From Bispira polyomma (Eukaryota): a DNA stretch of 64,000 nucleotides. The DNA lies in NCBI GenBank assembly GCA_965649765.1, contig OZ287752.1:56668001-56732000 (forward strand). The letters run 5' to 3'. The translations under genes and the position numbers were made by a program. The notes beneath the pieces are model-generated. The model ran no database searches, was not told the DNA's origin, and was given only the letters and a program-made list of their open reading frames with translations. This document shows positions 4,843 to 62,300 of the stretch, piece by piece; the stretch's first letter is position 1, and every line of letters starts with the position of its first letter.

Positions 4843-5744
4843 GGTGTAAAATAACTTGTAAAAATAACAATACTTTAATACTTAATATTCCCATGTAAAA
4901 TATAAAAAAGCAAAATATGGTGTGAATATGTATGAAAACAATAAATATGTATTAATACACAATAAAATTCAAATAAATACAGAGTAATTATCATATATAA
5001 CCTGTGATAGATGTAATAGAACAATGTATAACGGAATCCAAAATAAAAAATAGCTGATGAACTTGAAGAGAAAACTTAAATAAATCACCAGTAAACGAAG
5101 ATATGCATACTTCCGGTATTTATCAATACTTAATTGAAAGAACGTAATACACATGTATTGTCAAATGCACTGCGGTTACAATATGTATAGTTCCAGAATT
5201 GATTCCAATATCAGTACCCAATTTCACATTTTCACTTCAATGACTATAAGGACTGCAATTAAAAATATATGCATCTAAACCATATCTCCAGATTTCTGTT
5301 TAATTAAAAAATATATTCCACAGAAATAATCTATGACTCCTTTTTGATGTCAATACATATTTTGTATTTCTAGTGATCTGAGTTCAATAGGAAGACTGTT
5401 CCATAACATAAGCTCTAGACTGAAGGAAAGACGAATAACAAAGTGTGGGGACTGTTGAGAGACAACAGCTTTGAAACTGGTGACATGGATTATAAACAAA
5501 ATTTGATCATGAATACGAAGTCAATGGACCTTTTTGAGGTATGGAGAACTATATCAGAGGTATGGAGAACTATATCAGACTATATAACTTATTATATTAT
5601 ACCACACAAATTACATCCGTTGTGTGAGTCCTCTATGACAACAATACATATATATATGACTAAAACTAATTCTATACATGAGGTTGAAATTGTTGCTCTA
5701 GATATTCGCACTGAGTATTACCCAGGCACCTTTGTGTATAATGT

Positions 5745-5909
5745 TCAGATCTGGTGAGCACTGTTTCCTAAGAGTATTCTGTAGATGTCAGAGATCTGAT
5801 GGTACAAGTAGGACATGGCCACCAGACTGTATTTGTCTATGACATCCTTCTGATCAATGACAGACAGGGATATTGGTCTGTAGTTGATTTGGTGGTCTTC
5901 AATCTCATA
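5745..5909 (-). CDS. Gene A terminal exon (CD loop + putative helix D)
   Basis: ctatttttcag acceptor, phase 0, 54 codons to TGA. Confidence 0.85.
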   Translation of the reverse strand, partial: YEIEDHQINYRPISLSVIDQKDVIDKYSLVAMSYLYHQISDIYRILLGNSAHQI

Positions 5910-8900
5910 CTGAAAAATAGTGTGATAATGTTGGGTACTTAAAGCAATTGTTACCCTGGTTTTGCTGTGTACATGCAGTGTGTATGTCATTATTGTAGTT
6001 TATTGTAATTGATTTACCTTTATCCGGTAATTGAAGTGCTGATTGATCTTTTATTGACTTCCCAAGTATAGCCAGCCAGTACTAGTAACTGTCATTCCCC
6101 AAAGCGAAGAGAGAAGCTTGAGGGTGACTGATTATATAGGTTTTTAATAATCCACTTTTAATTTAAACTTTGTATAGCCATATTAAGTAATCCAGTGTTA
6201 CACATTAAAACCCATCACTTACCCTATATCTGATGAGACCTACTAAATCAGTAAGCCCACTGTTGATGTACATGTTCAGTTCAGAGAAGAGCCTCTCTTT
6301 GGGTGTTCTATCAGGTCTACACGCCATTGAACACAAGAGTGTATCCTCACCAATACAGTCATTAACCTGGACAGAAGCCAGTCCTACAGTTACAAGGGAA
6401 TCAGCTATGTGCTCAAGATACTTACTCCTCAGATACACTTCTTGGAGTCTTGCCATCTGAAAATGTAATTGTAAATGTGTAGGTTTATGGCTGATATCAC
6501 CTTTAGTGAGGTATTGTCCAACTTTACAATTTACAACCCGAGGGTGAGTTCTTTCAGTTGTCTTAGAGATATTAGAGATGTTGTTTTTGTAGTAATATAA
6601 CAAGTATGTACTGTCTGGTATCTATGGCACATACAAAAATCAGTTTACTGGTTTACTACATAGCTTGCATTGTGATGGTCACAGAACATTATAATAACCT
6701 CATTTAGAACATTTGAAATATGCTATATACATACATATATACATGTTTTGCTGGAGATTTATGTTTGTTTCTAGGGATTGATTTATATTTTATATGGGTT
6801 TTTATTGGTGATGTGTGTATGTTTTAATATTGATTACAATGGAAAACCTATATTTTTCAAGTTTCACATGCAGTTAGTGGACGGTTAAACTAGAAACTAA
6901 CACAGTGTAAATTTGCTTTCATATAAAATTTAAACAAACTTCAATTAAAAAGCTTCTTAGATTGCATCTTTATTTGTTATATTATTCTTTTAAAATAAGC
7001 ATGTGACATTTTCTGTTTTTAACAAAGCTTTTTGAGACGTTGTAAATGACCATATACAACAAAAATACTTCTTATTCATGTGCCTTTTATTTGAAGAGTT
7101 AATTAATGCTATCGTGACTTCCCAAGTACAGTCAAAAAGTAACTGACATTCCCCAAACTTATACGACACATGGTTGGAGATGACGATTTATTAACGTTGC
7201 CAAGGTTTCTTATCTCACCACTGGGGATAGGCCCCAAACACTGAAGGCTGCCATTTTAAGTTTCAGTAATTATGATATATAGAACACACCTCAACAAATT
7301 CTAAATGTCTACACTGATATACCACACAATTGTTAGTTATAGTGACACTAACCCATTCAGTAGGGACAGATGTCTGTTGAGGAGATGGATTGTTGAGTCC
7401 CACAGAGTCATAGCTCTCGGCTGATACTGTGCGACACCATTCCAGAGCTGTGACTTCATCTGTCTCCGTGAAAAAACTCTGACACTGAAAATTTTAACAT
7501 GGGATTAATCTATGGCACTGCAGTGTGTTTATAAATTTGTAAACCTAGTTTAACATATATCTGACGTGCAACTGCAGCAATAAATTTTAAAAATTATAAA
7601 AACTAGAATTGCAGTACAAATATAAGAAACAAAATACCAACTGTTTAAACATATAACTTGACAAGGAACTGCAGTATTTATTAATATTTTGACAACCATT
7701 AAAACATGTATTTACGATGGAACTACAGCTTCTAGTAAACATTTGACAACTATATACTTGATGTGGAACTACATTATGTAAAAACTTTGACAACTATTTT
7801 AACACACATTTGATATGGAATGGCAATAGTTGATAAGAAATTGACAATTACTTTAAATTAAATAAAATGTTTGATATGGATGTGTAGTGTTTGATACAAA
7901 TCTGACATTTATTTGAACATATATCACAATTATTCAAACATTTAAACATATATTTGTACCTAAAAGCCAGGTCACACCTACACGTGCCAACGTCTCACAA
8001 CACAGTTAAACAATAATATAAACTGAAGACGCGGTAGTTCGTGTAAAAGTGACGTCATTTTCACAAAGGTGCAGTCGATTGTGATGTTTTATGACGTTTC
8101 ATGGCGATGTTGGTACTTTTACAGACGGAAAAAAAAAAATAACTTACATATCTAGTGTAAATTCTTTGACTCTTCAAAAGTAGGTCATAGTACAACATTT
8201 CTAGATTTTCATCTCTTCCTTTTCTGGTGTGTGGCCTCCGGGCGTGTGAAACTTGCAACAGCATTGCCAAAGCCAGCAGACATACAAGTGTGAAAACTGG
8301 AAGTAGATATTAAGTAGGTGTTCTATTTCTTTAATTCAAAAACACATTTGCACGATATTACATGGCGCCATTATCGTGTATACTCAATATGTTATAATGC
8401 CAAATTCCCATGACTACAGGTGTTACAAATATTGCTTAAGTAGTATTTTGATTGAAATATCATTTTCGGTAATTGATACGGTATTTAATTTAACTAATAT
8501 TCACTATGGACCATTTTCAGAAAACAAAGCAGATATATCAAAACATTTTTACTATCCAGAGTCATCATTGAATATAATACTCATAAAATAGATAAAGATA
8601 TTGTTGTAGTTGTGTAGCAATATGTACCCATTGCATATTGCTACCTTTATCTGGTATTCAAAGTGGTAGCTACACTTTTTTGACTGCTCAAGTACAGCCA
8701 ACCAACACAGTAACTGTCATTCCCAACTAAATGGTGAAAGCCTCAAGGATGGCCATTTATCACCGTCCTGATCGGGAGACAAAAAGACGGGAAATGTTTA
8801 ATTGCATTTGCATATATTTGCATTCCCCGTTTATCACCTATTTTAACCTCCGTTTTAACTCTGTCATGCCCAGTTTATATAACGCTTTCTCCAGTTCTAT

Positions 8901-11103
8901 GCAGTTCCGGCCAGATCATACAAGTTCTAAGTAGTTTAAGTTCCATTTAATCCGATGTAGCACCAGATTTTAACTCCCCTTTTTTTCTTGGGGGGGGGGG
9001 GGATTTGACAAGGGGGTGCTATATTTTCACTCCCCCCCCCTTGCAAAATTTTTACTCCCCAAATTATAATTGCCATTAGGGCATTATAGCTATTATAGAT
9101 CAATAGGAGGTAACACTGTGGTATGTGGGTTTTCATTTATATATTCATGGCAAATTGGTGAAAATATGGCAGCCCCCTTGCCAAATTTTTACTTCCCAAA
9201 TCATAATTGCTATATGGGCATTATACTTATTATAGATCAATAGGAAATAACACTGTGGTATGTGGGTTTTTGTGTATATACGATGGCAAAGTTATCTAGG
9301 TAGGGACCCTATTATAATAACTCACAGGTTTGAGAGTAATGTAATGAGTTTGGTTAAAACACTAATTTCATTAAAATATTTTAGTTTAAATGATTTTCAT
9401 CTTTATCATTTCTGTACATACAAATCTAAATTTACATGTTTGGTTGTATAACAAATAACATATATATATATATTTACATAGGAAATTCAAATTTTTGAAG
9501 AATTGAAGATATAGAATATAGATATAAATTGAGAATTTCATCATTTCTGCAAAATAGTACAGATTAACACCTATTTTTTTACACACATTGAATTGGAATA
9601 TTCTATTTAAACTGATATATAAGCCTTAAGGCTGAGTGTTACATTAATAAAACATGTGAAACTTTGTATATCCGTACATGTAAAACACACTGTCAGTATA
9701 ATTAGGTAATTTATCTATCTATTTACATATACAATATACATACATAAACCTTTGAAGTTAACTAGGATATTAGATAATTGGCTTCTCATTGTGGTATACA
9801 ATACAAAGCGGAATTGATTACTAAACAACTGAATGTGGTTTTTCATAAGGAAACTCATCAGTACCTTGATTACTTGATTGTTTGATTAACTGGATTACTA
9901 GATGATTAGATGTGGCTCCTCATTGAGGTATATACTACTACAAAACTGGCTTGATCACCTAATAACTGAATTTAGCTTCTTGATTACAAGCGGCTTCCCA
10001 TAATTTAGTTGATTACTTCACTAAACGTGGTTTCTCATAGTGTGGTAAACATTTTTTATAGTAACTTCATGAAATACCCTTTGAAATTATCTTGATAGTT
10101 GCTTCTTACTTTTAAATAGTGGAATTAGACACATGGCTTCTCTTGAAAACTGGGCAACATTAAGTGTATATAAAGAGAGTGATATAAAAGTTAACTTTAT
10201 TATATTTCATATGTTGTTAGTTAATGAAAGCGTTGTATGAAGAGTTTATTTATTTAAGTATCAGTACCAGCCACAACTCCTAAATTATCTGCTTTATCCA
10301 AGTCATCCCATGCCATATCAACAATAAACCAGTATTTTTACAATCATCATTTGTTTTGCAATCGATATATTAATTATTGTTTTATTTATCGTTAAAAATT
10401 TCTGGCTGCAGCTCCCGTTCTTGCCATTTATGCTCGTTTAAGCCCAGTTTATGCCCACGTTTACTCAAGTTCACACATGTCCTCAGAACGGGGACAGTGT
10501 AAATACCACTTAACTATTTGATCTGACTCGAACCCCAATTTTTTTTTCATTCCCAAACTAGAATGTTGCCAACTAGGCCATAGTGGCAGAGAAAAAGCTT
10601 TTGTTAAAGTAATGTGAAGGCATTTGCAACTAAAATACAAAATCATCTGATTCACAGTTCTAAAACACTGTTCTAGCAGCAACAACATCACTCAGAATAG
10701 CATCAGTAATGGAGTGGCATCTTAACCAATGTTTTATGTCTCCACATTTCTTTAGCATGTGACTGGCAATAGCAACAATTTTAGGTGAGCCCCCCAAAGA
10801 TCATAGACATGCCTCAAATTAATGTTGTAGTTAGAAATCTACCACAATCAGATCATATATGATCATAGCCCAGGATGCCATGCCAACAGATGCACTACAT
10901 ATTTTGAATATATATTTGTCACGGTCACAATGTCACACTGTATGTTATAACAAAAGAAAACTAAAACGTTTTTGTGAAAATTAATATAAATGAAATAATC
11001 TGTAACCGCGACAAAAATTAATTCTTACCTTTCATTTTGACGTGAAAATTAATATAAATGAAATAATCTGTAACCGCGACAATAATTAATTCTTACCTTT
11101 CAT
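5745..11103 (-). CDS. Gene A: secreted 228-aa predicted four-helix (long-chain class-I cytokine-like) protein, 5 coding exons
   Basis: Exons 11103-11097 (or duplicate 11035-11029), 8296-8148, 7484-7353, 6456-6223, 5909-5745 all have GT..AG ends and join in one frame (687 nt incl. stop), phases 1,0,0,0. Protein: MKVFTLVCLLALAMLLQVSHA-RRPHTRKGRDENLEMLYYDLLLKSQRIYTRY/CQSFFTETDEVTALEWCRTVSAESYDSVGLNNPSPQQTSVPTEW/MARLQEVYLRSKYLEHIADSLVTVGLASVQVNDCIGEDTLLCSMACRPDRTPKERLFSELNMYINSGLTDLVGLIRYR/YEIEDHQINYRPISLSVIDQKDVIDKYSLVAMSYLYHQISDIYRILLGNSAHQI*. Gene model is well supported; cytokine identity is inference. Confidence 0.8.
6223..6456 (-). CDS. Gene A exon 4 (putative helices B and C)
   Basis: cattttcag acceptor, AGG|gtaagt donor, 234 nt open, phase 0-0. 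Confidence 0.88.
7353..7484 (-). CDS. Gene A exon 3 (putative AB loop)
   Basis: aattttcag acceptor, TGG|gttagt donor, 132 nt open, phase 0-0. Confidence 0.85.
8148..8296 (-). CDS. Gene A exon 2 (signal peptide + putative helix A)
   Basis: Acceptor ctacttccag, donor TAT|gtaagt; hydrophobic FTLVCLLALAMLLQVSHA. Confidence 0.85.
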
Positions 11104-11109
11104 TTTGAC
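10974..11109. repeat. 68-bp tandem duplication containing the start codon and donor of gene A
   Basis: 10974-11041 vs 11042-11109, one mismatch. Confidence 0.95.
11097..11103 (-). CDS. Gene A exon 1 (ATG AAA G, phase-1 donor)
   Basis: Minus strand reads caaaATGAAAG|gtaaga. Joined to exon 2 it gives MKVFTLVCLL. An identical copy lies at 11029-11035. Confidence 0.7.
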
Positions 11110-11173: not shown

Positions 11174-11203
11174 TTCTTAGAATAGCGTGTGCTTCTATAT
11201 ATA
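11174..11203 (-). promoter_or_regulatory. Candidate core promoter of gene A: TATA box with adjacent STAT (GAS) palindrome
   Basis: TATATATA at 11196-11203, about 95 nt upstream of the exon-1 ATG; TTCTTAGAA at 11174-11182. Confidence 0.4.
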
Positions 11204-20930: not shown

Positions 20931-22914
20931 GTAATTTGCTTGTTTTTTTTTTAAATATATGTTACATTTTGGTAGTTTGTGTTATATCAGTGATTTCAGG
21001 GTTGCAAGGTTTTATTGTTTTACTCTTTTTTTGGTGTTGTATAAAATACAACAACCTTGTAAATATGTGTTTTCATCGTTGAGACAAATTCGTAATGGAG
21101 CCTAAAGGCAACAGTGGGAAAACTTTGTTGAAGGTGAGACTTTCTTAACTTCTTTTTACACTGAATATTATGATTTTGTAGGGCATTTTTGGGTTTTATT
21201 AGACAAATATGAATAACTAGATGTACGTTTGGTCCAAGGCCTTAAAATGATTCATAGAGGGATTGTAAAAAGTTATTAGCGCTGACAATGATTGAACTAT
21301 TATTATCAGTAAGTAGAATGTTACCAGTAGATTATCATGTTAATAATGCTACTGTATACCCTCTAAACAACAGTAAAGCCCCTTCCAAAATATCCATAAA
21401 ATTACAATAGTTATAACAATGGGGTTTTTTCTTAACTTATTTTTACACTCAATATTATTAATTGGTACAACATCATGATTTGATAGAGCATTATGGGTTT
21501 TTAGCCCAGCATGAATCAATATTGGCGCAAGGACTGTTAGGTCCAAGGTGTGATCATGATTCATGGACAAATTAATATGCTAAAAAGTTATAAGAGCTGA
21601 TAAAATCAGGTTTTAATATTATTATCGAATACTTTGTAGAGCTTGCTAACTTTGGTCAAAGTTATACTTTAACATAATTTTAAAACTACTAAAAAATTTA
21701 ATTAGTACATTAAAATATCATGTGGGTTAAAATTTCTTTGAATTTTATCAATATTTAAATTTATCGTTGTTTAAGTATAAAAAGATGAAAAACACCTTAC
21801 ATCAAATTGCCCTACATTATTAAACATGAATAGAGATCAGCTTTAAAATACAACAATTAAAATTACAGGACCTTGGGCTTAAAATTTTATTAGCAGCCCC
21901 CCTGCCTTGCTAGGTAAATCAACATGCACTCAATATGTACCCAGTATTACCATGATAATTTACTACTAACACCTTGGTTACTGATAATAATATTCATTAA
22001 TAATGTGCTAGATGGAAATTTGTGACTTTTGGCTGGCTCATCTTCGCGGTATTTTAAAGTAACACAAAAAGAGGATGTTTATGTTTAATATGACTTCCCA
22101 ACTAAAATCTACAATTCTCAAATTAAATGGATGTAGAATTAGTTTGTCCAAGCATTTCAATTTACTCAAAGCTTACCTTCAGGATTAATAATTTAATCAG
22201 ATATAGTGAATCTAATTACTCACTAGTAATAAGAGATTAAGTTCAGTAAGTCTTGTGCAATCTTGAAACATAATAAAGTCATCTCTATTTTACCTTCACA
22301 ATTAATTAAGCCATTTATTATCTTTTTGGCTTGCAATGGATTAGTTAATCAATGTATAGTGTCTCTTTCAAGACATTTTGTGCCATATCACAATGGACAG
22401 TTTACTGGTGGGGAATCACACAACCTTTTAATTAGTCAAGGTATTTTGCTCTGCAAACCACCAGCCTTCAGCAAGTCTACTGTCAAATTTCCCACCTACA
22501 GGATACAGATTAGATTTTAAAACGACAACTGCAGAGGTGGGAGGTGAGTTGACTTGTTGTTTAAATGATTTCATCAGGCTAAAAGTGTGCAGCAGGATAT
22601 ACTGGACTTATCATGTGTGGCTATTTTGATATTGTTTTAGCAGCTGTTCATTTTAAACAGTTGGCTGTTCCACTGATATTACGTTTGGCAATTTCAATTT
22701 TTAAAAAGATACCTGGAAGATACTTTGGTAGTATATTTGAATTTATTGCTCAGTCAGAAGCAAGGACAGAAGTTAGCTATTTTAGAATTAACATTTTTTT
22801 AGGAGAGGGAGAAATAAATTGGGGTATTGCAGGTTTTACTGCACTATCAAAAGCTAGTAATTGTTTAGTCCGTCAAACTACAGTTCTGACTGTTACTAAA
22901 ATGCCAGTGTATTA

Positions 22915-22969
<55 letters not shown>

Positions 22970-23061
22970 TACACTGGCATTTTAGTAACAGTCAGAACTG
23001 TAGTTTGACGGACTAAACAATTACTAGCTTTTGATAGTGCAGTAACACCTGCAATACCCCA

Positions 23062-23101
<40 letters not shown>

Positions 23102-31300: not shown

Positions 31301-34300
31301 TTAGGGTGTCAAAAGAAACTCTGGCACGAAAAGTTATTGGTCGGCGTGCATTTTGGGAGGCGGCCTGAGGGTATATAAGGGCGGCTGTGACAGTGATCTA
31401 CATTCATTCAGCTACAGCATCTTAAAGACTTTACAACTATAAACAATTCTACAGACAACAGAGATTATTATTGAGGTTATGAAGTTAGAAAAATAGGAAA
31501 GATCCAAAATACAAAGACACCCAGGCAAAAGACATGTTGTGGCGGGAGTTCTGCTTGGGAAAGCGATTGGACATGGAAGAAGTGAAGAATTGGTTTCAAT
31601 CACAAAGGACTAGCTATGGCAAGCTGAGTATCAGGAAGTCCAGCCAGGCAACACCTGAGTTGGCAGAGAAGCAGCACTGGGTCAAGAACACCTTTGACTT
31701 TTTAAAACCTCACATCATATGACATGTCTCGAGAACATCTGGCTTCAGACCCGTCGCATTCACCTCTTTGTCCGTGGCTCCAGAAGAATCACCAACTCCC
31801 ATGTGGGGTCCCAGTCAGAAAGAGATTAGGGCACTAAAACAGAGATGGAGTGTTCCTTGCTGGAGTACTTTAAAGCGGTCTTCAGTCTGTGCCAGATCAA
31901 CTCTGAACCGTAAGGTGGCACTATTTACTGAGCTGAGGAACACGCTGGCCATGATGCAGGACACCATCTCAGGCTTCTTCAGGGATGCCATTAAGCCCAA
32001 GACTGAGGGACCCAGGGAGGCATTTCTCAACTGGTTGACATTGGAAGAAGAGAAAATGCCAGATGAACATACTGACATACTGAATGCCTCGACAGCATCA
32101 TCTCTCTTCAGAGGTTTTGAGTCAGTGACTCACAGTCTCAGCTAACAGAACATAGATAATATTGAGCTGTTCACACCTCTCAATCCAGATGCATAACAAA
32201 CGGATTCCACCCTGAACACTCTAACCAAAGTCGTCTAAAGTACTTAGCCACAAGCCAGCAGCATCACTACAACCACCGAGATGTAGACATCGGCCTGTCC
32301 TCGTCTTCCTCCTCCTTCATTAGTCCCACTGGGGACACAAAAAGGCCCTTTTCAGGGACACCCAAAACATCCAAAAACTGTTTGACCTGTTGTTAAAAAA
32401 ACTCATAAAACCACCTCATGACAAGAAGCATACTGACCTGGTAGACTTTTTTCTCCTTCAGTTCGGATCTGTTAAAAATATAGGCATCCAAGTACGACCC
32501 CTTTCAACCTATGCCCCACACAGAAAACAGTAATCCCCATCTACCGGGGTAAGCATAATGATTGTGTGGTATCCCTTGTAGTGGTACCCTGCTCCAACTT
32601 TTCCTCGGGCATCTCATAGCAATGTATTTGCCGTCTATGGCCCCCAGGGCATTAGCAACATTCCACGTCTTCAGGAATGCAGACTCAACCTTCTTGTAGT
32701 CGTCGGGGCTGGTGGGGCATTTGAGGAATTCTTCCTGGTACTTGATGAAGGCCTGGCAAACTTCTGACACAAACTTTGTTATGGTTGACATGCCCACTAT
32801 GAACGAGTACTGCAGCAATGTGTTGGACTCCCCAGTAGCCAAATGCCTTAAAGTGATGACTATCTTGAGTCCAGGGGCTAGTGCCTTCCTCTACCAGGTG
32901 GTGTGTCCTGTATCCTGTTCCCCACCCACCGCTCCATCTCCTGGAATACATCAGGTGGCATCCTGAGCCCGTTAAGGTCGAGAGGTATGATCGGCATAGT
33001 GGAACAGGGGTATAAGCAAGGGACGTCCTAGCTCTGTTTTAAGTAATAATGATAATACTAACAATAACACTAACATTAATCGCAAGAAAAAGAATATTAA
33101 ATTTGGAAACATAATGCTTTTCTAATTTTGCAACAAGACAAATTAAAGATCGCATGTTAATTATCTGAGGTTGTCTACTATTTCATTTCAAACTAAATTG
33201 AACCGTCCCAAATACTATGCCATTAGTTACATTATCTCTTGCATTTACTTTAACTTGGGTAAACTTTGTGGTCACCTTAGCTCTGTCAGCAGATTAATTG
33301 AGCCATAGGTGTTTTTTTTGGTGTGATCTTATTTTGCTACAAGACTTTTGTTGAGATCACCATTGTGTATGTAAAACAAAAAAAAAAAAGAGCATAACCT
33401 TAAGTTACCTCGAGACAAGAAATTTAGACCTGTAAAAACCTTTTTTAGTAATCTGAGGTCTATACTATTTACATATGTATTTAATATAGATACATGTAAT
33501 AAAAAATATCCTGTATATTATGTTATTACCGAGGTATTTTGGACTTGTGTTTCGTAGTGATTATTAAACATTTAATTTGAATTTAGTTGTTGTTTCAACA
33601 GTTTCGGTCATATGATGATAGCCATATTTTATGGTGAAAGAAACCAGTGCTCAAGCATAGTAAACCACTGGCCTAAGGCAAGAACCTGACAAAATTTCCC
33701 TTCTAAAGGAACAAATGGAATTCGAACCCACATTGTAGCGAGGCTATTGATTGTAGAGCAAACCCTTCTAACCACTAAGCAAACCATGGCCTCTGAGAGC
33801 TTTAAAAAAATAATAACACTGTTTCACCTTTGTGCTGTATGCGTATTTGAGATAGAATTGAAGAAAGTCCATCTAATAAGTCACAATAACTTATTTGCTG
33901 TGAGGAACAAGAACCAGACAAGGAGCCTGTAATTCTACTTCACCTTGGAATGCTTTATGTCGATGAGTATCTGAAAACTAGAACAGATTTGACACCAAAA
34001 TAGAACTTCACTGACAAACTCCTAGTATTTGCCCAATAATTTGACAAGGCTATCACAAATACGGTGGTATTTCCTTTTTATGCGTTTTGACTTAAAATGA
34101 CGAATCTTTCTGATTGGAATATGTCTTCAACTTCAACCCTCTATGCTGAACAGAGATACACATGATAAATATGAATTATATTATAAAAACACTTAAAACA
34201 TTAGATCTTATTTTATTTTCTGTTAATAAAATATCACCCAACTCAAACTACCTAGCTGCATCAACAGCCAAAACCTTATTAACTTACATGGCATCATTTT

Positions 34301-37300: not shown

Positions 37301-37958
37301 AGTGACAGAGGACCTGCTATTTTCAGTGGTCATCCCTGCCACTATGTATCAGCCTGCACCTTCTTGCCACAGGCTGGGTTCAACCCAGCTCTCTGCATTC
37401 CTGGGCCAGCAAGTTATCCTCTGGGCCACATGGGCATATATGTATTACATTGTGTTTTGCATTTTTAACGCGTCGTTTCTTTCAAAGCGCAACAACAGAA
37501 TCAAAATAAAAATGTGCTCTAAAAGACAAAAAAAAAAAGCCAGATTCTAAGGAAGGATGTGGGGGTTAACAGGGAAGGAACAAAGGGGTGTAAGCCATTT
37601 AGCCAAAAGATAGGTTATAAGTTTTAACGCCATTGATCGCCATGTCACTTGGGCAGTTCTATTATTATTTCAAAATGTCAGGTAGGTAAAATTATATATT
37701 TTTTTATATATCAGTATAACATTTCAACCCTTTTTAGGTAATGGATCCGGTGGCGGAATCTTCCCCATTATGTGTAACATCTACAACAAGATCCGTGTGG
37801 TTGAGCCAGTGGTTGAGATCTCCCAACTGATCCCACAAAGCCTCCAGGACAGCAATCAGCTGGCGGACATCCAGGATGATTTCTACCACATCCTTGTCAA
37901 CACCCAAAGAGTGCTGAATAAGCTGACTGGAGACATGCAGCAAATCTCCAGTGTATAG
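20918..37958 (+). CDS. Gene B: secreted 233-aa predicted four-helix (long-chain class-I cytokine-like) protein, 5 coding exons
   Basis: Exons 20918-20930, 25920-26146, 28154-28228, 35505-35670, 37738-37958 join in frame (702 nt incl. stop), phases 1,0,0,1. Protein: MMVMG/YTQVFTKLCPWLLTLLLSSTSLS-SPVHFNPCHDHHVSSETQPSHRSSWRGQDAFMTKVLMDLTKTTEVTQQIKQQ/LEDDFENLDHIEYLKERGEIDALLA/EPLADLPFEKQLLNIYASLRRVELFTGHIRTLVLSTTNHESAQNVILTMLTQLGQ/GNGSGGGIFPIMCNIYNKIRVVEPVVEISQLIPQSLQDSNQLADIQDDFYHILVNTQRVLNKLTGDMQQISSV*. Exon 1 is the least certain. Confidence 0.78.
22814..23099. repeat. About 100-bp near-perfect inverted repeat around a (TA)n microsatellite, followed by a second (TA)n
   Basis: 22814-22916 is the reverse complement of 22964-23067, with one mismatch seen. 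Confidence 0.95.
23240..23660 (+). mobile_element. L2/CR1 LINE fragment
   Basis: Broken frames with 'RPVSNLTYVSKLIEKAVAKH'. Confidence 0.7.
25920..26146 (+). CDS. Gene B exon 2 (signal peptide + putative helix A)
   Basis: Polypyrimidine tract tctttctctatttctag, CAG|gtgagg donor, GC-richer open frame with hydrophobic PWLLTLLLSS. Confidence 0.82.
26249..26393. mobile_element. Short MITE
   Basis: Terminal inverted repeats gctgtgcctgata ... tatcaggcacagc; related internal sequence at about 41135-41340. Confidence 0.6.
27075..27372 (-). mobile_element. tRNA-derived SINE (second family)
   Basis: Minus strand begins ctgTGGCCTAGTGGttaggg...ggattctattcccggt; body-related fragments at about 6055-6130, 7115-7260, 8685-8765 and 37265-37340. 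Confidence 0.65.
28154..28228 (+). CDS. Gene B exon 3 (putative AB loop)
   Basis: Strong acceptor ttttgtttttgtcag, donor GCG|gtgagt, 75 nt open, phase 0-0. Confidence 0.78.
28470..30360 (-). mobile_element. Degenerate L2-clade LINE ORF2 in intron 3 of gene B
   Basis: 'LDPIPTFLLKSC', 'KNCRPVSNLNFVSKIIEK', 'HSTETAIVKV', 'GVSRGSVFGPIL', 'CYADDTQL', 'ARNLGAIFDS'; multiple frameshifts. Confidence 0.92.
30700..33030. mobile_element. Decayed PIF/Harbinger DNA transposon (MADF/Myb-like ORF on +, DDE transposase on -)
   Basis: + strand 31534-31722 'EEVKNWFQSQRTSYGKLS..KSSQA..EKQHWVKNTFDFLKPHI' is MADF-like. - strand 32504-32860 'LATG..LQYSFIVGMSTITKFVSEVCQA', 'ALGAIDGKYIAMRCP' is HARBI1-like. Subterminal AAAGATA(A/G)G repeats at 30760-31280; ends approximate. 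Confidence 0.85.
33580..33792 (-). mobile_element. tRNA-derived SINE remnant
   Basis: Minus strand has an A-box-like ttagtggttagaag and B box GGGTTCGAATTCC. Confidence 0.55.
35505..35670 (+). CDS. Gene B exon 4 (putative helix B, start of helix C)
   Basis: aaacttcag acceptor, CAGG|gtgagt donor, GC-rich codon usage. Confidence 0.85.
35752..36302. mobile_element. AT-rich MITE-like element with TTCT(T/A)AGAA repeats in intron 4 of gene B
   Basis: Imperfect inverted ends (ggatcatattcact ... agtgaataaggatt) and repeated ttctaagaa/ttcttagaa units. Confidence 0.5.
37738..37958 (+). CDS. Gene B terminal exon (putative helix C end, CD loop, helix D)
   Basis: ccctttttag acceptor; phase 1 matches exon 4; ends at TAG. 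Confidence 0.85.
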
Positions 37959-44682: not shown

Positions 44683-44982
44683 CTACTCTGGTCCAACGGG
44701 AGGATCTTGAATGGCGACGAGCATGTAATCTTTGTCGGGAGCAATAATTATTTCGTGCTTCTTGGTGCGCAGGCGCAGAAGCTGGAGGTCGTTCTGTACG
44801 TCCAAATGATTGACGACGTTCTTGGATTTCATGGCAAACCCGTGCACAAGGGTGGCATAGTGGGTGGTCACGTTGGCTTCCATGGTGCTCTTGATGACTA
44901 TTCCTTCACTGTTGAGGATGAAACAACCGATGACCCCTTTAGAAGACTGTAGCCTTTTAAACATGTCATCTACTTCAGCCAT
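44683..44982 (-). CDS. DYNLRB: Dynein light chain roadblock-type (LC7), intronless CDS, 99 aa
   Basis: MAEVDDMFKRLQSSKGVIG..LNSEGIVIKSTM...QNDLQLLRLRTKKHEIIIAPDKDYMLVAIQDP closely matches the roadblock consensus (MAEVEETLKRIQSHKGVIG...[31 protein letters not shown]). AATAAA at 44437-44442 (-). Confidence 0.96.
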   Translation of the reverse strand: MAEVDDMFKRLQSSKGVIGCFILNSEGIVIKSTMEANVTTHYATLVHGFAMKSKNVVNHLDVQNDLQLLRLRTKKHEIIIAPDKDYMLVAIQDPPVGPE

Positions 44983-50908: not shown

Positions 50909-51190
50909 ATGGCAAACTGTAAACATTGCGCCCCTTTATTGCGTTTCTTTGCACTTCTTTCAATTGTTGCATATTCACAAAGCAAAATATTTCAATTTAA
51001 AGATAATTCCTTTGAAGCAAACGTTCTTCACAAACCGTTTGGTGACTTTGAAAGTAACAAAGAGCGTCAGAGGTTTGTTCGTGATACGGGCACTGCACAA
51101 GGAAGCAATCTACCCAAATCAAAATTCCTAGAATTAAACCATCCAAACCATAATCAGGCAGTTCTGCATTGGTCTGGCAGAAATAGCGAT
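50909..51190 (+). CDS. VPS10 receptor exon 1
   Basis: aaaATGG start, signal peptide, HNQAVLHWSGRNSD, GAT|gtaagt donor. Confidence 0.92.
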
Positions 51191-54100
51191 GTAAGTATAT
51201 CTGCTGTATATTAAGTAAAGTAAAGAAAATATTCTTAAAGTTATTCTTAAAATGACACAAGCGCAGATACGTATGGTTATATAGTCACACTTCCTGTTAT
51301 CGATCACTTTCTATTATCGATCAGCAACAAAATAACCGGTTTATACTAGGTCATGTGACCTCAATTTAGCATTGATCATTTGGCATTTCGAAATAAAACA
51401 AAACTTCAATAACCTCCAACAAAAATTAAGAAAATAGGAGGTAAAAAAAGATATTAACTTGTTAAAATACATTTTATATATTATTCCGCTTACATGATTG
51501 ATAATTGGAGGTGCGAGGATACATTATGTTTTCGATGCAATGGGGTTTTCGACGTAACATATTTACTTTGAAACCTCGTTTACCATCATACTGTAGGTGT
51601 CCAAAGGTTTTGTTGTATTTCTGATTCGCTGTATAGTGTTGAAATGTAACTTCGGCATATTAAGCTATCTACGGCAGGTGACGTTTCCGCTCGGTATTGT
51701 ACAATAATATTGACAATTTGATCAATTTATTGCAATGAGATTTATCCCTGATTAATTATTGGTGTATTAATAGACACATAATTGGAAATGGTATACTTTG
51801 AATGTGGGTAACGATGATTTGGGTCAAAGTAATATATGCGCCGAATTTGCATAAACTGATGATATAGTTATTTTGCTATTAAAGTTATGGGATTTTGTTG
51901 GATATATATGTTAATTATAAGTTGTTGTTTTTTTTGACGTTTTCCGAAAATTTAAATTGATGAAATGCCTGTATCTATATGAATACTTAACCTAAAATGT
52001 TACTTTTAGTATCACTACAAAGCTGTTAGTATGTTCTTTGTGATAGGCATCTCCAATATTTATATGTACTGATAAATGAAAATTAAACCATTAATATAAA
52101 TTCAAAATGTATACTTAAAATTGTTGAATTTTGAGTGAATTTCATTGATTAAATGCTTACATTTCAGCAAATATAGGTTATACCAATTCTCAAATTATAT
52201 ATTCATGAAGCTAAATAAGTATAATTTCTGGAACTTTTTACGAAATAAAAATATCTGATGTATAATAGCTGAGTAAGTTGAAGTTGAAAAGGAGTCAAAA
52301 AAATTTACTGCGAACCTACTAAAACAGCAGCGAAACTGTCATACAGCAAAACCTCCATTAATAGGTATGTATACGATAATAAAACGGCAATTCCAAAGAC
52401 TAAAATTGCTTAGACTAGAATTTGCTTTAAAATACACTATTGTCAGTCTTTATGATAGAAATAAAGTCCTCGAGCTTAATTTATTTAAGATTAGAGGATG
52501 GCCCTTGTCCATTATTCCGCCAGTAGAGCCATCCTTAAATACATAAATAAAATTCCCGGCTTGTATCAAAAATATTGGATCTCGGGAAGTAATTAATAAT
52601 AATTTAATTGACTTCGGGAAGTGCATATCAGGATGCTGATTGTTTACATAAAGATCTACATATAACAATATTTAAGTTAAGGATGAAACAAGAAGCACAA
52701 TGATCACAATAAAATAAACTATTAATAAATCAAATTAAAAAATATTTCCTATAATTAAATCAAACTTTTATGAATAATTACTTCTTACTAATGACTGCTG
52801 TTTGAAGGTTACCTGACAACTATCAGAAGTACATTGTAAAGACTCAAGAAAGGGTGGTTATTTGGGAAAATATTAACTTCTGCCCATAGTTTTCAGCACC
52901 TAATTTATTTATGTTGATTTTATTTGTGGAAACAATACGTGCTGGATACACCATTAAATATAGGTCTTTATTAAAGTTACCTTAGCATTGTATGATGTTT
53001 AATTAAAGGATCTATAATTTTTTTAATGAGCTGTACTTTAGTACTTTGTCTTTATGTATGATAACATAGGCAATGTTCATGCTGACCCGGAAGAGAGAGT
53101 TCAATGGCTCTGTCTATGAGAGCGTTACCTACAGGTATGTTGTGACAATGTCTAGGGTCAAACTTTGGTTGTAAAGGTAAAATTATAATATTTGTGTCCT
53201 ATCTCAAGAAGTATCACTTGAAATTCCATTATACTAGAACTTGCCATACTTACTGGTAGGGTTTGTACCATACAGATCTATGTTAAGGTCACTTGTATTA
53301 CTCTAATTTTGTCAGTTTTATATAATGCTTCATGGAGCATTGCTTTTTATATTTAATTTTTCACTCCTTGGGGAGGAGGCTGACAGTATGCCTGTTTGGG
53401 CAAACAGTTCCTGTTTCATTTATAATATCCATAACAGTAAAATTAGTAAATGTTAAAGCGTATTAGCTTTTTAAGAAAATTAATAGCTTCTTCAACTGTT
53501 TTAGGTCTGACGATTATGGGTCAACATTTCGTGAAGTTGACACACAAATCAGGGGAAACAATAACAAGGTTGTCATTACCAGTTATTATGTGTCCCCAGT
53601 TGATGCAAATAAGGTAAGATACCACCTGAAGCTCATTCTGTAGTGTACTTTTAAAATGCTATAGGTTTCATGGGTGGTATTGCTAGGCTTGGTTTATAGT
53701 TTCTATTTTGCTACGATTTGGTTACATGTATATGGTTATTTATTTGTTATCAGTAAGAAATTATATCTGTATCCAACTACAATTTAGTGATAGAGAATTG
53801 TTTTAAGATAAATGCTAAACTTTTTGTTATTAAAACAAATGCAAACAGTTTATACATCATCATGTTGTTGCATTTATGTTGCAGCTCCTGTTTGTGGCAG
53901 TCAATGACAAGCTAATATTTAAAACGGACGATGAAGGACACACTTACTCGCAATGTAACAAGCCATTGACCTTCAGCCCTGACTACCTGTTATTTCACCC
54001 AAATAATTCACAAATGCTGCTTGCCTATGATTACTACAGGAGTTTAGTAAGTACCAAACGTCATATCAATAGATTTTAAGTCAGCTTAATTCCAGTAGAG

Positions 54101-56304
54101 CCTCTATTATCCGAACTTCTGTTATCTGGATATTTTATTTCATGAATTGATTTCCACTCTCTTGAACTTATGTTTTCCTTTTTTTTATATACTGAAATGC
54201 CACTTCTATTTTATGAATATTCTATTATCCAAACAAAATCCTACTCACACAATATGTTAGAATAATAGAAGTTGTACTGTATATATGGTTCTTAAAGACT
54301 GTAGAGTGGGATTTATAAGACGAGTAATGATAAAAATTGAAATTATAGATCAAAGTTCTCTGAATACAAACTTCCGTTATTTCAATATTCCGTTTTACAG
54401 AATCATTTTTACTATCTCTCAAATTTACATTTTCTATACTTTTGTACTAATATTAACACCTGTTATATTTTATATCACATCTGTTGTCTAAACTCAAGTA
54501 TTATTCATCCAGTATGATTGGATGATATAGGTTCTGCTGTACTTTGTGTTCATTATAGATGTTGTAAATGTACAACATCTTGCGCAACTTATAACTTGTA
54601 CAAAATCCTATCTTGTACACAACATATACAGTTGAACCCCTTTAAGTCGAACCTCAAGGGATCAGTAGAAATACCTCTACTTAAGCAGGATTTCCACTTA
54701 ACAGGGTAGATTTTTGAAGAAAAGGCTTTTGTGGGACCATAAATTTTGCTCCATATAAAAGGAAAATTGAGTTAACAGAGTTCTACTTGAAGGGGTTTGA
54801 CTGTACATCATTTTTCAATACTCTGGAGGAGGGCGACAGTAAGCACGTTCAGCCATTCAGTTTACGTATTTGCAGGTGAGTACCATCACTACTGAACAGG
54901 AAGTGATGGCATTCTCATGTTATACTAGACAGGCTCACAGGTATTTGTATTTTATCCCTTATCCACCATACATGCATGAATTCATTATGATTCCACTATC
55001 TGAATTGGACCAGTCTTCTCTGTGTAAATGTCAGCACCAGTATCTATTTACAAAGTCAAACTGCGCTAATATAATTCTTAAGGCAAAAGGACTTTAATAA
55101 AGTCTAATGCTATAGCATCGGTGGATGTACTATTCATCCCTAAAAATGGTGACAGGCTAATCTCAGAAGTGGTTGGGAGCTGTGGTCTCAAATTTGACAC
55201 ACAGACATAGTCTTTTTGTTTTTGTATGTACTGTAAACTTGTGTTAGTTTCTGATAATACAAGCCCTGTTTTCAGCTCTACGTATCCAAGGACTTCTGTG
55301 TGAACTGGCAGTTGGTTGCCAGGCATGTGACTCCACGCTTCAGCTGGGGAGTGCCCAGCTTACAGGATGACCAGAATGTGATTTATGCAGAAGTGGAAGA
55401 CATTGAGTCAGGTGTGTCAGTGTTATTCATTCAGTCAGCAAATCTACTGGAATCCAGGGCCCATATTCTTTAAATATCAACAGTTTAGACCCATGCTCAA
55501 AGCCTGAAGTCCTAATCTCCCTTTGGGTAGATTAAGGTTGGGTAAGATCTCACTATATAAATGAATTCAGCACTGAAAGCTCTATTATGTAGTGAATCGT
55601 CACACAAGTATGTGAAGGTTTATATCTATCCACAAGGATGTCCACAAAGCCTTCATTTGGGTTTAGTCTGAATTTGAGCTAGAGTTAGTTGGTTTTGGGT
55701 TTTTATTGGGGGGAGGGGGAATATATAGCTTCGAGGTTTCTATAAGTAGAACCAGTATAGCCCCAAGGTTTCTATAACCAGGACCAGTATCTCTCTAAAG
55801 TTTCTATAACCAAAACCAGTATAGCTCCGAGGTTTCTTAAAGTGGAACCAGTACAGCTCTGAGGTTTCTATAACCAGAACCAGTATAGCTCCCAGGTTTC
55901 TATAACTAAAACCAGTGTATCTTTAAGGTTTCTGTAAGTAGAACCAGTGAAGCTCCAAGGTTTCTATGACTAGAACCAGTATATATCCTAGGTTTATGTA
56001 ACCAGAACCAGTATATCGCCGAGGTTTCTATAACTAGAACCAGTATAGCTTAAAGGTTTCTATAACCAGAACCAGTATAGCTCCAAGGTTTTTATAACTA
56101 GAACCAGTAAAGATTCAAGGTTTCCATAACAACTATGACCAGTAACCAGAACCAAGTTTGGCTACCCACATTCAATAACACTAGTTCTAAATTAGGTGTC
56201 AGTAGAAGACTAGGACTTAGCCATAACTAGAGCTAGTACTGCCACTAATAGGCCAAAAGTGGAGCCGAATATCGCTTGTTATTACTGACAACATATCGGT
56301 ACTG

Positions 56305-56343
<39 letters not shown>

Positions 56344-59300
56344 TTCTATTTTAAATGATCCATTTCGATAAATAGTAAGGGAGTCTCTCTTTAATATCTT
56401 TATGTTGTTAAGGTGTCAAACCAGTAAAATGTAGTTGGTGCTTACTGTTTTGTGTACAAAGAATTCTGGTACTGCAGTAAACAGGACAAAAAAAGGAAAA
56501 TGCGGGCAAAATACCACAAAAAGATGATTAATGGTTGGATTTTATTCAATTATCAAAAGTTTCTTGGTTTATTGGCAGAATCAAACCTTTAAAATATTTT
56601 CCAATATCACTCACAATGACTGTGCAGACCAATTCTTAGATCATAACGAATGTCCTGGCAGTACTAACTAGAACTAAGTCCTATGTAAATTAGACATTCT
56701 ACTGATGCAGAATTTAGTGTATATCTAGTCTAATACATATGAGTATTTATTATCCAGGTGGTTATCGTTACTGCAATATGTAGTCTAATACATACGAGTT
56801 TGTATTCTCCAGGTGGTTATCGCTACATGTCTTTCAAACCAACATATGGAGATGACAACACCACATCGGATGGATGGATTGGACTTATTGATGTGGATTC
56901 TTTTCTTTTAATCGGGAAATATATATTTGTACAGGTAAATATCACCCCTCTCCTGTTCCAGATAAAATAAATTACAGACTAATTAAAAAGTTACAGATTT
57001 TTGCCTGCTGAACTGTGTTTCATGACAATAATGTGTTTGTGGAATTTATTGCAAATTAAATGGTCACATGTATTGATTCTTTTGATAAAACAGTTGTGAT
57101 TTTTCTTTTAAAACAAACCTTTGTACATAAATAAAAAATTATCCACTTTCTAAACATAAAGTAAAGCACTGTTTAAAAACTTTGTATAATTATTTGTTTA
57201 TCATACACAATGATTCGTTAATACACATTAAAAAGTGGGCTATTGTATATTATTACACATATCAAACATTACCTGTATCCCAAATATCAAACATTACCTG
57301 TATCTCACATATCAAACATTACCTGTATCTCACATATCAAACATTACCTGTACATCCCGTATCAAACATTACCTGTATCCCACATATCAAACATTTACCT
57401 GTTTCCCACATGTTTCAGAAAACGTCAGGCCTTGACACAGCCCTGTATGTATCCTACGAGAGAGGAGAATTTAAGAAGGCTTATTTCCCACTAGATCAGC
57501 ACCCCTTGGTAAGATTGTGGCACATTTTGTTCCCTTTAAAAAATATTTTTGTTGAAGATCAAAGCAGTGATATTTCTGTGTATAAATTTGGTACAAAGTA
57601 CTATTTCATTGTTTTGTTCTTTTAATGTAATCAGCATTTGTCTCCGGAAATTGGTGAGATTTTCATCTAGCTAAAATCTCCACCATTATGTGGTGTAGTT
57701 GTATACTGCTTATTAAGGCAGAACCGACATCAGTCGATTGCTCACGACCGGCAGCGATTAATCAATCTTTCAACCACTGATGCATCACAGATGTTAAAAA
57801 AGTCTTCTTATCAAACTTCCATGTTACTATAGTGAGATTTGTTAAATATACAACAGGAATTTTACATTTCTTGGTGAAATAATTGTTTATTTTTATTGTT
57901 CCCTTTAATTTCTCAGAGGCAAAAAAAGTAGATTTTAAGTAATAAATTTTGCATTACAATTACAAATATACTAAGTAGCAACTTCATTTCTACTGATGCT
58001 AGTGAAGTACCACAAATATGTAGTTTGTGATAAATTCATTATCGGTGAACCAAAATCAGTTCATGATCACTTAATTAGAAATTACTTGTTGGTGCTATAC
58101 CATCATTGTGTTGGTAATAGTGTTGGTAATTAGTCTGCTTCTAACAGCATGTACTGATAACCTACATACCACTTCCTGTAAACATTAAACAGAATCAAAT
58201 TTAATAGTGCACCAATAAAACTACCTATAATAATAAAAAGTATTAAAAACACCAGGATATTGCATTTAAGGTAGATATTTGTTGAATAATCGATTAAATA
58301 ACTTTTAAGTGATCACAACATTGAAGTGTCACCAATGATGAATTGACCCATCCATTAGATGGTAAGTGACTCCCAGCTGTACTGTTCAAATATGGTGTGT
58401 TAACTGTGTTTTAGGACTTTACAATAGTGAATGCTGATCAAGACCAAATCTTTCTGTTAGCCGGTCATAAGGAAGGCCATGTGAATCTTTACCTGTCTGA
58501 TAAGACTGGGCAGTTTTACACCATATCCCTGGACAATGTGGTGTCCATTAACCTAATGGGCAAAGGGGTCAGTGGAGACGTGTATGAGGTATGTCAGCTG
58601 TACATCTGAAAGAGAATAGCCTTATAGTCTTTGTATTGTAGTGGTGGAACAATTGTCGGAAAATGTCGATGCATCAGTCGAGACAGCTTACAATATCAAA
58701 TATCGATCCTCCCATGTCATCAATCGATTAATCACAAAATACTTTTCCGAATTTGAACTAATAGATATTTTGAGGTTTTCTTATGATTTAAGATAGTTTT
58801 TAAATCAAATAAAGCAATTTTGGCCACTTTTATATTTGTTTTCGTTTGCAGCCATGTTTACTGGAAGTCATATAGGTTAGCAGTTGATACTAAATGTCGA
58901 ACGTTTGATTTTGACCAATTCTTACCCAATCACAATATATTTGGCTTGGGATGACAGGATAAGTAACTTAATACTTTATTACAATGAAATTATGTTAATA
59001 ATCAATTTCATGTCGATTATCGGTGGGAAAATTAAGCAATTTATCGACCTCTAGGTACAGACGATTTCCCAACACTATTGTATTGGTCTCCATGGCCTAG
59101 CGGTTAGTGTATCAGATTTTTGGATCTTAGGGATCTTGATGGGTCCCGGTTTGATCCTCATTGCAGTTCTGGAGGTTGTACCCTTGGACATGGTACTTTA
59201 ACACAAAGTTGTCCCCCTCTACCCAGGTGTAGGAGACGACCCTCCAATCACTAGACAAGTCCCCACTGGGAGTTGAACCAGGGATCTTCTGATCACCAGA

Positions 59301-62300
59301 ATAACTCACCAGACCGCAGATTTAATTCCTTGTATTCGTTTGGAGGGGGCATTATTCTTTCACTCTGTCCATCCGTCTGTCCGTCTGTTCATCCATGGAC
59401 AACAGATAACACAAACTCAACAGTTATGTTGCCTTCATATTGGAGTAGGTCATTCATATTGGGTATCAAATAGATATGACCTTGACTTTTGTGTTCTTAC
59501 ATTTCCAATTATGATGTAATTTCTTGTATATCCCTGCTCTTCGTAATAGTTTATTCCATAATAAAAGTCGGAAAGTCCACAAAAATTCCTATAAGCTGTA
59601 AATGTTAAATAATAAGCTTATCAATTCATTATTGTAGAGTATCACCTCTATCATCCAAACTTCTATTCTCTGAACATTCAATTCTATGACCTCATTTATT
59701 GTTTTGTATAGACTTAAATTTATGAACCTTTTATTATCTTAACATAATATTGCTGTCTCAACATTCTTTGCATATTAGAGATTCTTCTATATTAGATATT
59801 TTTATACCCCGGCGGTGAATTAAGCAATCCTATTGGTTAAAATGCTATCATGTGACATAACATATTTCCCGATATGGCCCGGGAGTCAGGGGCCATATCA
59901 CTGCAGCAGGTCATATCACTGCAGCAGGTCATATCACTTGCAAAGTTTAGCAAGCACCATCGGCGGTAATATTTTAGAATTTTAATAATGGATCCATTTA
60001 TTTAATATATATAACTTTAAATTACATCAAAACTAGTACTTAAAGCCATTTTATTAAAATTATTGCTAATGTGCTGAAAACCCCTACAATCTTCGCAGGA
60101 GTTAGGGGTGCTACTAAACCACGGAGCTCAGCGAATATATACATTGGGTCTCTAAAATCTCTTTTTGAAAGACCACTGAGTATCTTTATTAAAAATTCTC
60201 AAAAATGCTTTAGTTTAATAAACAGAATAAAAGCTGTTTGTGAGGGCTATACTGGGATATAGGCACCCGTGGTCAGGCCAATATTGCTCCAGGGCCGTCA
60301 ATATTTAACCTGTAAAGTATAAAGTATTTATGCTGCTGATACATATGTTTTCAAAATACTGTTATGGTCATAATGCCATTATTCATACCATTGTTATATT
60401 ATTTTTACATACATGTACTTTAAACATGGAAATTATTGATGTATATTTAATTCATGGAGTATATTAAAAATGAACAAAAAAATAATTGATTTAAAAAAAT
60501 ATCCATGTTTTATAATGTTTATAAATATGTGTCGACTAGTATTATGATCTGATCGGTATTTTGAACGCTCGTGTAGTGTTATAACATTTTTTTAGCATAT
60601 GTGAATACATGTAGGAGTTTATATTGTCCAAAACTTTCTGCATAGTATGGTATTGTATTTTGAATTTTTAACGCGCCTTATTGATGCTAGGCATCTCCTA
60701 AAGTGCAACAACAGAAAGGCAAACCTATAGAGAAGTCCAAAAACATAGCCACGGTCGTAGAGAAGGATGTAGGGGTTACGAGGAGGGAAACTATGGGGGA
60801 TAGGCAAGATTAACCGTTTAACTAATAGTAGTATCTGTACTATGTTTAGGTTAAAAGTGTGCATGGAACATACTTAGCCAATCAGCACACCAGTGGAAAC
60901 CCACGCACACTGATCACCCACAATATGGGAGGGATTTGGTCCCCAATACCTACACCAAAAGATGTGGCTGAATGCAAGGTTAGTAGAATTGATGTCACAT
61001 TGTACACAAATCATCTTAATCCTGTCACCGAGGTAGGAAAATTTGCCATGTACTGAAGGAAATTCACAGTATGCACAGGTGGCACTTGCTTCGGCCTACC
61101 CATGGCCACGGCCTACCCTTCAAATTACTTCGATATTTACATTGCCTTTGTATTAATTTTACTCAGTGGCCAAGGGTAGGCTATACGCTGAAGCCAGCGC
61201 CAGCTGTGTAATAGTATGAGTAAAATGTGCAGCTCAAGGAGTGCATTATATTAAATCAACCATTATGGTCCAACATCTGGTAGATATTGTAAATACTTCC
61301 CTTGCTGATAAGGGCCCAGGTGTTTTAGGGATGAGTGTAAGACTTATACCTCTGTGTTATCAAAACATTAAAAACTAAATGCACTATTTAAATGGTAGAG
61401 ATCAGTGGTTTAAATCCCACAAACCACTCAGTAAAGACTGGCAAGAGTGACTAGACCAGTGCAGTAGAACCTCTACTTTACAGACATCTTGGGAGAGTGA
61501 CAATTTATTTGGATAATAGAATGTCCGTAAAATAGAAGTGGCATTTTAGTATAAAACAATAGGAAACATAAGTTTAGGAGAGTAAAATTGAGTCCGTAAA
61601 ATCTAATATTCGGATAATAGAGGGTGGGATAATGGAGGTTCTACAGTAGTTGACATCACATTGACATCATTTAGTGCATGTGGTGTCTAGGGACATGCAA
61701 AATGTTATTGCCTACCAACAAATGACATTCAAATCATTTGAGCACAGTCAGGCATACAGAGTGCAGAATTGAGACCTTGCCATGTTTTGAACTATAGACT
61801 AGTAGTTGTAGTTGACTTATATACACAGAAGAGCTGAGGAAAGTGCTCATTTTAACATGTTAATGCGTCTTATAGTATGAGCACATTGTGTATGTTGTTC
61901 AATATAGAAAATCAAGAACAATGGTCCTGGTTCAAACAACTTGTACTAGTAAGCCTGGCATTTTAGGGATTTGTGGGTAACATGTCTGCCTCAGTGTAAA
62001 CAAAACCAACTATCACTATCTGGAGCATTACAACAGGGAACAGATTTGAATTCTAGATTGCTGAGGTAAGGTGTATGTGAAAGATATATTTGAAGATATC
62101 TTCTTTTATTAGCTGATATGTACAAACTTGAGTGGAACAGTGAAGCTTTCTTTGTCTGGGCTCATATTCATATATTCTTACTTCTTTAATATTAGCCTCA
62201 ATCAATTTGATTGACTGAAAATATTGTTTTACAGAATCTGATTGGTTTAGACTTGTATTCTAATAATGTTTGTGAATATGGTGCCAAGTAATGTACTGAC

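Follow-up and report, generated by a model that had tools for sequence, protein, structure and literature searches.

A gene on the minus strand of a 64,000-nucleotide stretch of the Bispira polyomma genome (contig OZ287752.1, positions 56,668,001 to 56,732,000; hereafter the window), here called gene A, is predicted to encode a secreted long-chain four-helix cytokine that would act as a single chain on gp130/Domeless-like receptors, with its fifth mature cysteine left as an orphan (probability about 0.5). That the product is cytokine-like in a broader sense is probable. Gene A is distinct from IL-6 and from growth hormone/prolactin, and is likely a member of the long-chain class I cytokines.

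Gene A consists of five coding exons separated by four introns, all of the GT...AG type and in phases 1-0-0-0, and its open frame encodes 228 amino acids ( Table 1 ). Splicing was deduced from the sequence and from the paralogues described below. Cysteines occur at residue 8, in the signal peptide, and at residues 53, 69, 130, 138 and 142, leaving five in the mature chain. The exon model bears out what a preliminary description of the window had reported, namely the phase string, a basic RRPHTRKGR segment with an R-x-x-R motif just past the predicted signal peptide (residues 22-30), and five mature cysteines arranged as a C-x15-C pair (Cys53/Cys69), whose first codon opens the AB-loop exon 3, and as C-x7-C-x3-C (Cys130/Cys138/Cys142) in a long BC loop. 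By itself the phase string carries little weight, being expected in about 3-6% of five-exon genes under assumed phase frequencies, and becomes strong because the paralogues share the phases, the exon sizes and the cysteine that opens exon 3. A tandem duplication provides a second ATG/donor copy of the very short exon 1, which encodes the identical protein. Use of the downstream donor would turn the upstream copy into an upstream open reading frame (ORF) of five codons. Contigs from three public DNA runs, which belong to one study, may derive from a single animal and so do not count as independent evidence, are identical to window positions 5457-7989, with zero differences; the Ser154 codon discussed below is thus no assembly error.

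A search of the genome with exon 4 of gene A recovered two matches 650 kb away, and reading of 290 kb around them revealed the genes B1, B2 and C and a degraded B3, which form a tandem cluster (C5:57,313,896-57,367,898). B2 and C repeat the five-exon layout with phases 1-0-0-0, and B1 has exons 2-5 in the same phases, without a clear exon 1. Exon 3 starts with a cysteine codon in each case, and exon sizes match those of gene A. Alignment scores are well above those of shuffled sequences for A versus B2 (z=19.6) and A versus C (z=9.1; 0 of 1000 shuffles in each case), and the ratio of non-synonymous to synonymous substitution rates (dN/dS) between B1 and B2 is 0.37. The degraded exon 4 of B3 and the seeming lack of an ATG in B1 suggest a birth-and-death pattern in the B cluster. 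Two further weak matches to exon 4 of gene A occur in the same genome, and no additional paralogue was found in the window or its 20 kb flank.

Relatives were also recovered from other organisms. A profile made from four exon-4 peptides matched 6 proteins at E <=0.001 among 1.84 billion, one of which (P0003) was dropped as a low-complexity repeat artefact. The orthologue P0002, an unnamed exon ORF known from exon 4 alone, is identical to exon 4 of gene A at 46 of 78 positions (59%) and has the same terminal codon. Later profile rounds added hypothetical or uncharacterized proteins from tubeworms, seven from Lamellibrachia satsuma (LSAT2_015479, LSAT2_017409, LSAT2_001701, LSAT2_010558, LSAT2_010559, LSAT2_019867 and LSAT2_019868) and one from Ridgeia piscesae (NP493_850g01055), so that all named relatives come from siboglinid annelids. 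Like the gene A family, the tubeworm proteins have the core cysteines, the E-[RQ]-x-[LV]-[YF]-C start of helix C and an R-x-R-R before helix A. They differ from A in keeping a sixth cysteine wherever that stretch is present, and share 17-25% identity with its exon 4. None of the 96 candidates from a word-index search with exon 4 against longer proteins scored, none of the 216 and 76 pattern matches from two metagenome scans was confirmed, so that neither the remaining exons of P0002 nor tubeworm intron phases came to light, and Pfam searches with the relatives gave just weak, unrelated matches.

The family core comprises six cysteines: one at the end of helix A, a second 9-20 residues further on, three within the BC loop, and a sixth that marks the start of helix C, eleven residues past the final BC-loop cysteine. 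C, P0008 and P0010 have exactly this set in the mature chain, and B1 and B2 have eight. At the helix-C position, 14 of 17 sequences have cysteine and two (A and P0002) have serine, the stretch being missing from one (P0013); the codon is TCT in A versus TGT in B2. P0002 retains all three loop cysteines alongside its serine. Odd counts also occur in the tubeworm models P0009 (5) and P0014 (7), which seem to be mis-spliced or truncated. As judged from this comparison, the odd cysteine count of gene A is a lineage-specific loss, six minus one through a Cys-to-Ser change at residue 154. There is then no basis left for an IL-12/IL-23-like design of the family, and the earlier proposal of a free cysteine reserved for a covalent dimer of that type is not supported at the family level, given the even counts in C, P0008, P0010, B1 and B2.

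The fifth cysteine of gene A was more likely orphaned when an internal disulfide was lost than set up to tether a partner chain. The free thiol would most likely be Cys138 or Cys142, since the x3 and x11 spacings are fixed while the others vary, with Cys53 the next candidate. G-CSF has five cysteines and is a monomer. A free cysteine need not mean a dimer, as human IL-27p28 has one and yet pairs non-covalently, while IL-23p19 and IL-12p35 are disulfide-bonded to p40 (PMC9597551).

Hydropathy of the gene A product peaks at residue 6 (3.18) and nowhere later exceeds 1.2, indicating an N-terminal signal and no membrane segment; the signal peptide call refers to this profile, and cleavage after Ala21 to a reading of the sequence rather than to SignalP. 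The product is predicted to be secreted, and with 228 amino acids, an N-terminal signal and no membrane segment it fits the size range of long-chain cytokines (150-280 amino acids). Its R-x-x-R motif, R27-K-G-R30, is a minimal site with a non-basic P2 residue, and such a motif falls within the first 12 mature residues in 4.7% of 20,000 shuffles. The suggested convertase trimming finds mixed support among the relatives: R-x-R-R occurs in the same register in five of the seven near-full-length tubeworm proteins, ending 24 residues before the first cysteine (23 in A), the other two models beginning at or past that position, and no such site is present in B1, B2 or C. Trimming is plausible, at slightly better than even odds.

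The relatives P0008 and P0010 were folded with AlphaFold2 on shallow alignments (18 and 12 rows), giving models of low confidence (predicted local distance difference test, pLDDT, 53 and predicted template modelling score, pTM, 0.37 for P0008; pLDDT 54 and pTM 0.46 for P0010). Both show four long helices plus a short AB-loop helix, with low confidence for helices A and D. Mapped from these models onto gene A, the helices would span residues 29-55/59, 97-127, 148-174/176 and 188/191-221/223, and the exons end at residues 52, 96, 174 and 228. Helix B thus begins at the first residue of exon 4 and helix C ends with that exon, helix A takes up exon 2, and helix D falls in the last part of exon 5, predicting a one-to-one correspondence between long helices and exons. 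The helix/exon register of the IL-6/G-CSF genes is the same, and the intron phases of IL-6 likewise read 1-0-0-0. The AB connection is about 44 residues long, and the CD connection about 20 residues, Pro/Gly-rich and with a Ser/Asp cap in all members. A five-exon layout in which one intron interrupts the signal region is described for IL-6/G-CSF genes (PMC13081863, PMC6389648).

A further indication of topology may come from the B paralogues. B1 and B2 carry one extra cysteine before helix A and another at the first codon of exon 5, just past helix C; both are visible in the degraded B3, and neither occurs in A or C. If bonded, this pair would place the start of helix A beside the end of helix C, which would fit an up-up-down-down rather than a plain up-down arrangement, the former being the topology described for such cytokine bundles (PMC7378365).

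Candidate receptors are encoded in the same genome. A scan for WSxWS, in which some of the codons were covered, returned 26 pattern matches versus 16 for a control pattern. One of the 26 proved to be a cytokine-receptor exon; three others looked similar, and the one among them that was inspected is not exon-like. The confirmed match is an FN3 exon at C3:32,669,285, within a gene at C3:32.64-32.70 Mb that also contains a cytokine-receptor exon with CRLF1 as best PDB match (E 0.019), more FN3 exons, a membrane segment and a Pro-rich Box1-like stretch. The WSDWS-bearing FN3 exon has gp130, IL-31RA and PRLR among its top PDB matches (E 0.004-0.007), and the tail carries nine YSKV motifs and one YIMQ; SHP2/SOCS and STAT3 roles are known for such tail motifs. 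Each match alone is weak, and the case for a receptor is made by the order of exons and segments. With a tandem paralogue 140 kb upstream (C3:32.53 Mb), the genome probably encodes a gp130/Domeless-like receptor pair, and both class I receptor genes found have membrane-proximal FN3 exons. A soluble p40/EBI3/CRLF1-like chain was not found in the genome by narrow, exon-wise searches, in which none of 8 candidates for PF09240 and none of 11 for PF09067 was confirmed. A match to PF06328 was spurious, containing stops, and a C4 match was rejected as a receptor-like chain for lack of WSxWS.

In the proposed mechanism the gene A product would be secreted, its signal peptide being cut after Ala21, and a furin-like enzyme may then trim it after Arg30. 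The bundle would be capped by two internal disulfides, at the end that holds the close of helix A and the turn of the BC loop, leaving one unpaired thiol in the mature chain, and the protein would presumably bind the C3 receptor pair with JAK/STAT output.

Several results weigh against this scheme. Pfam contains no family matching the four larger exons of gene A, or P0008 and P0010, and PDB sequence searches gave 0 and 3 unrelated weak matches, with no cytokine. Both fold models pack the AB-loop helix with helices B, C and D as a plain up-down bundle and leave helix A out, and five fold searches with these low-confidence models listed generic bundles (Z about 10 or less) and no cytokine. The BC loop measures 20-27 residues and holds three or four cysteines, and a long cysteine-bearing BC loop is unlike IL-6/G-CSF. 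Against the tubeworm profile, the score of gene A is marginal, at 7.7 bits compared with a maximum of 6.5 among 246 scored shuffles, and paralogue C reaches 52.3 bits, so that the link from A to the tubeworms is transitive via C. Also, the combination of serine and three loop cysteines in P0002 suggests that selection may have maintained an unpaired thiol. The cytokine-like reading of the preliminary description is favoured by the exon/helix register, the B cysteine pair and the gp130-type receptor, and not confirmed by the fold searches. Those searches, together with the lack of a profile match, the 3-6% chance rate of the phase string and the restriction of named relatives to siboglinids, would fit a secreted, wholly helical annelid protein with a different fold or role (a plain bundle, a class II-like protein or a hormone precursor) that is IL-6-like in its phases by chance. 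Such a protein is a possible but doubtful alternative, since helix borders coincide with exon borders as in IL-6/G-CSF, the AB and CD connections are long, the B paralogues have their specific cysteine pair, and interferon-type genes are described with phases 0-0-0-0 instead (bioRxiv 10.64898/2026.05.30.728932); the fold models are too weak to serve as a test. That the gene A model was put together by chance or represents a pseudogene is highly improbable: no transcript was seen, exon 1 is just 7 nt long and duplicated, and the cluster includes damaged copies (B3, B1), but the frame and splice sites are intact, the paralogues match, P0002 conserves exon 4 to its end codon, and the tubeworm relatives are annotated.

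Under the same fold, the A lineage could have recruited the orphan cysteine as a latch between chains, forming a homodimer or an IL-12/IL-23-like heterodimer with a soluble chain. The odd exon-4 pattern has lasted long enough to be common to A and the 59%-identical P0002, and Cys69 lies in the AB loop, as does the C73 through which IL-23p19 bonds p40 (PMC9597551). The even counts elsewhere in the family argue against such a latch, as does the nature of the odd-count tubeworm models; P0002 could have a compensating cysteine outside the exon from which it is known, and the receptor genes found are both of the kind with membrane-proximal FN3 exons. The latch, a covalent dimer on the cytokine fold, is unlikely overall and somewhat less unlikely if the fold is granted. 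Even more tentative is a composite scenario of an expanded IL-6/G-CSF-type family peculiar to annelids, inherited together with its exon layout from the bilaterian ancestor and acting on tandem gp130-like receptors, in which the A lineage would have independently evolved an IL-12/IL-23-style latch by giving up one internal disulfide. The single-chain cytokine with an orphan cysteine is retained as the preferred explanation.

Neither a sequence nor a fold match of gene A to IL-6, G-CSF or IL-11 was found, and gene A is unlike these in its C-x15-C followed by C-x7-C-x3-C-x11-[C/S], its long BC loop and its basic propeptide. IL-6 proper has a four-cysteine AB-loop configuration, whereas in A two mature cysteines fall in the AB loop and the other three in the BC loop, with no Pfam IL6 domain. 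IL-12p35, IL-23p19 and IL-27p28 resemble gene A in their odd cysteine count and AB-loop cysteine; they are unlike it in that its odd number stems from a loss confined to a single lineage and that no soluble partner was found in the narrow searches, and the exon number of IL-12p35 differs. In LIF and oncostatin M, encoded by three exons, a disulfide joins the N-terminus to helix C, and the extra cysteine pair of the B paralogues (before helix A and after helix C) resembles it, but gene A has five exons and no cysteine in helix D. Growth hormone and prolactin genes have five exons and a phase-1 first intron. Their AB-loop-to-helix-D and C-terminal disulfides would not be possible in gene A, which has no cysteine after residue 142 and hence none in exon 5.

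Table 1. Features of gene A and its surroundings in the window.
Feature	Position	Strand	Remarks
TATA-like element, putative promoter	11196..11203	-	about 100 nt 5' of the ATG; seen in the sequence
Exon 1	11103-11097	-	7 nt (Met-Lys + 1 nt), phase-1 GTAAG donor
68-bp tandem duplicate	10974..11109	.	copies 99% alike; bears second exon-1 copy at 11035-11029
Exon 2	8296-8148	-	remainder of predicted signal peptide (to Ala21), basic propeptide, predicted helix A
RRPHTRKGR (residues 22-30)	8214..8240	-	candidate convertase site R-K-G-R, 23 residues ahead of Cys53
Exon 3	7484-7353	-	AB loop, Cys53 (7484-7482), Cys69 (7436-7434), predicted short helix
Exon 4	6456-6223	-	predicted helix B, long BC loop with Cys130, Cys138 and Cys142, predicted helix C
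Ser154 codon (TCT)	6283..6285	-	position of the sixth core cysteine of the family (TGT in B2)
Exon 5	5909-5745	-	CD loop (about 20 residues), predicted helix D, stop; zero cysteines

Elsewhere in the window, an intronless Roadblock/LC7 gene (Pfam E 2.8e-21) is encoded at 44686-44979 on the minus strand, and the 5' exons of a Vps10/SorCS-like receptor gene (Pfam Sortilin-Vps10) occupy 50909-64000 on the plus strand. An apparent two-exon gene of about 75 amino acids lies at ~37676-37955 (plus strand), with a weak Pfam hint of BORCS6 (E 0.068). Broken facing ORFs at ~31489-33038 presumably represent the Myb/MADF-like and DDE genes of a Harbinger transposon, and a 127-nt inverted repeat, 98% complementary and with zero spacer, is found at 22814-23067. 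The mitochondrial contig is read with translation table 5, in which AAA codes for Lys here, and contains the gene block atp6-R-H-nad5-F-nad4L-nad4, an annelid mitochondrial pattern. In the mitochondrial genome C75, protein genes lie on both strands and cox1-cox2-cox3 are adjacent, both unusual for annelids. The genome also encodes the erythrocruorin linker family, above the profile cut-off, and together with the mitochondrial gene block this identifies it as an annelid's.

A BLAST survey across 18 phyla/subphyla, including annelids, located IL-6 in vertebrates only (PMC13203501), and IL-6-family ligands and leptin are likewise given as restricted to vertebrates (PMC12284397), despite the presence of receptor, JAK and STAT in invertebrates (PMC13203501, PMC12284397). 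A structure-based search extended IL-6-type ligands to lampreys and hagfish (PMC13081863). No published annelid class I helical cytokine was found in the literature covered, which did not extend to subscription journals and supplements. The covalent dimer is the weaker part of the present finding. With candidates for both ligand and receptor in one annelid genome, it becomes possible to test what the missing JAK/STAT ligand of protostomes is, and the shared 1-0-0-0 layout would, if true, date this gene plan to the bilaterian ancestor.

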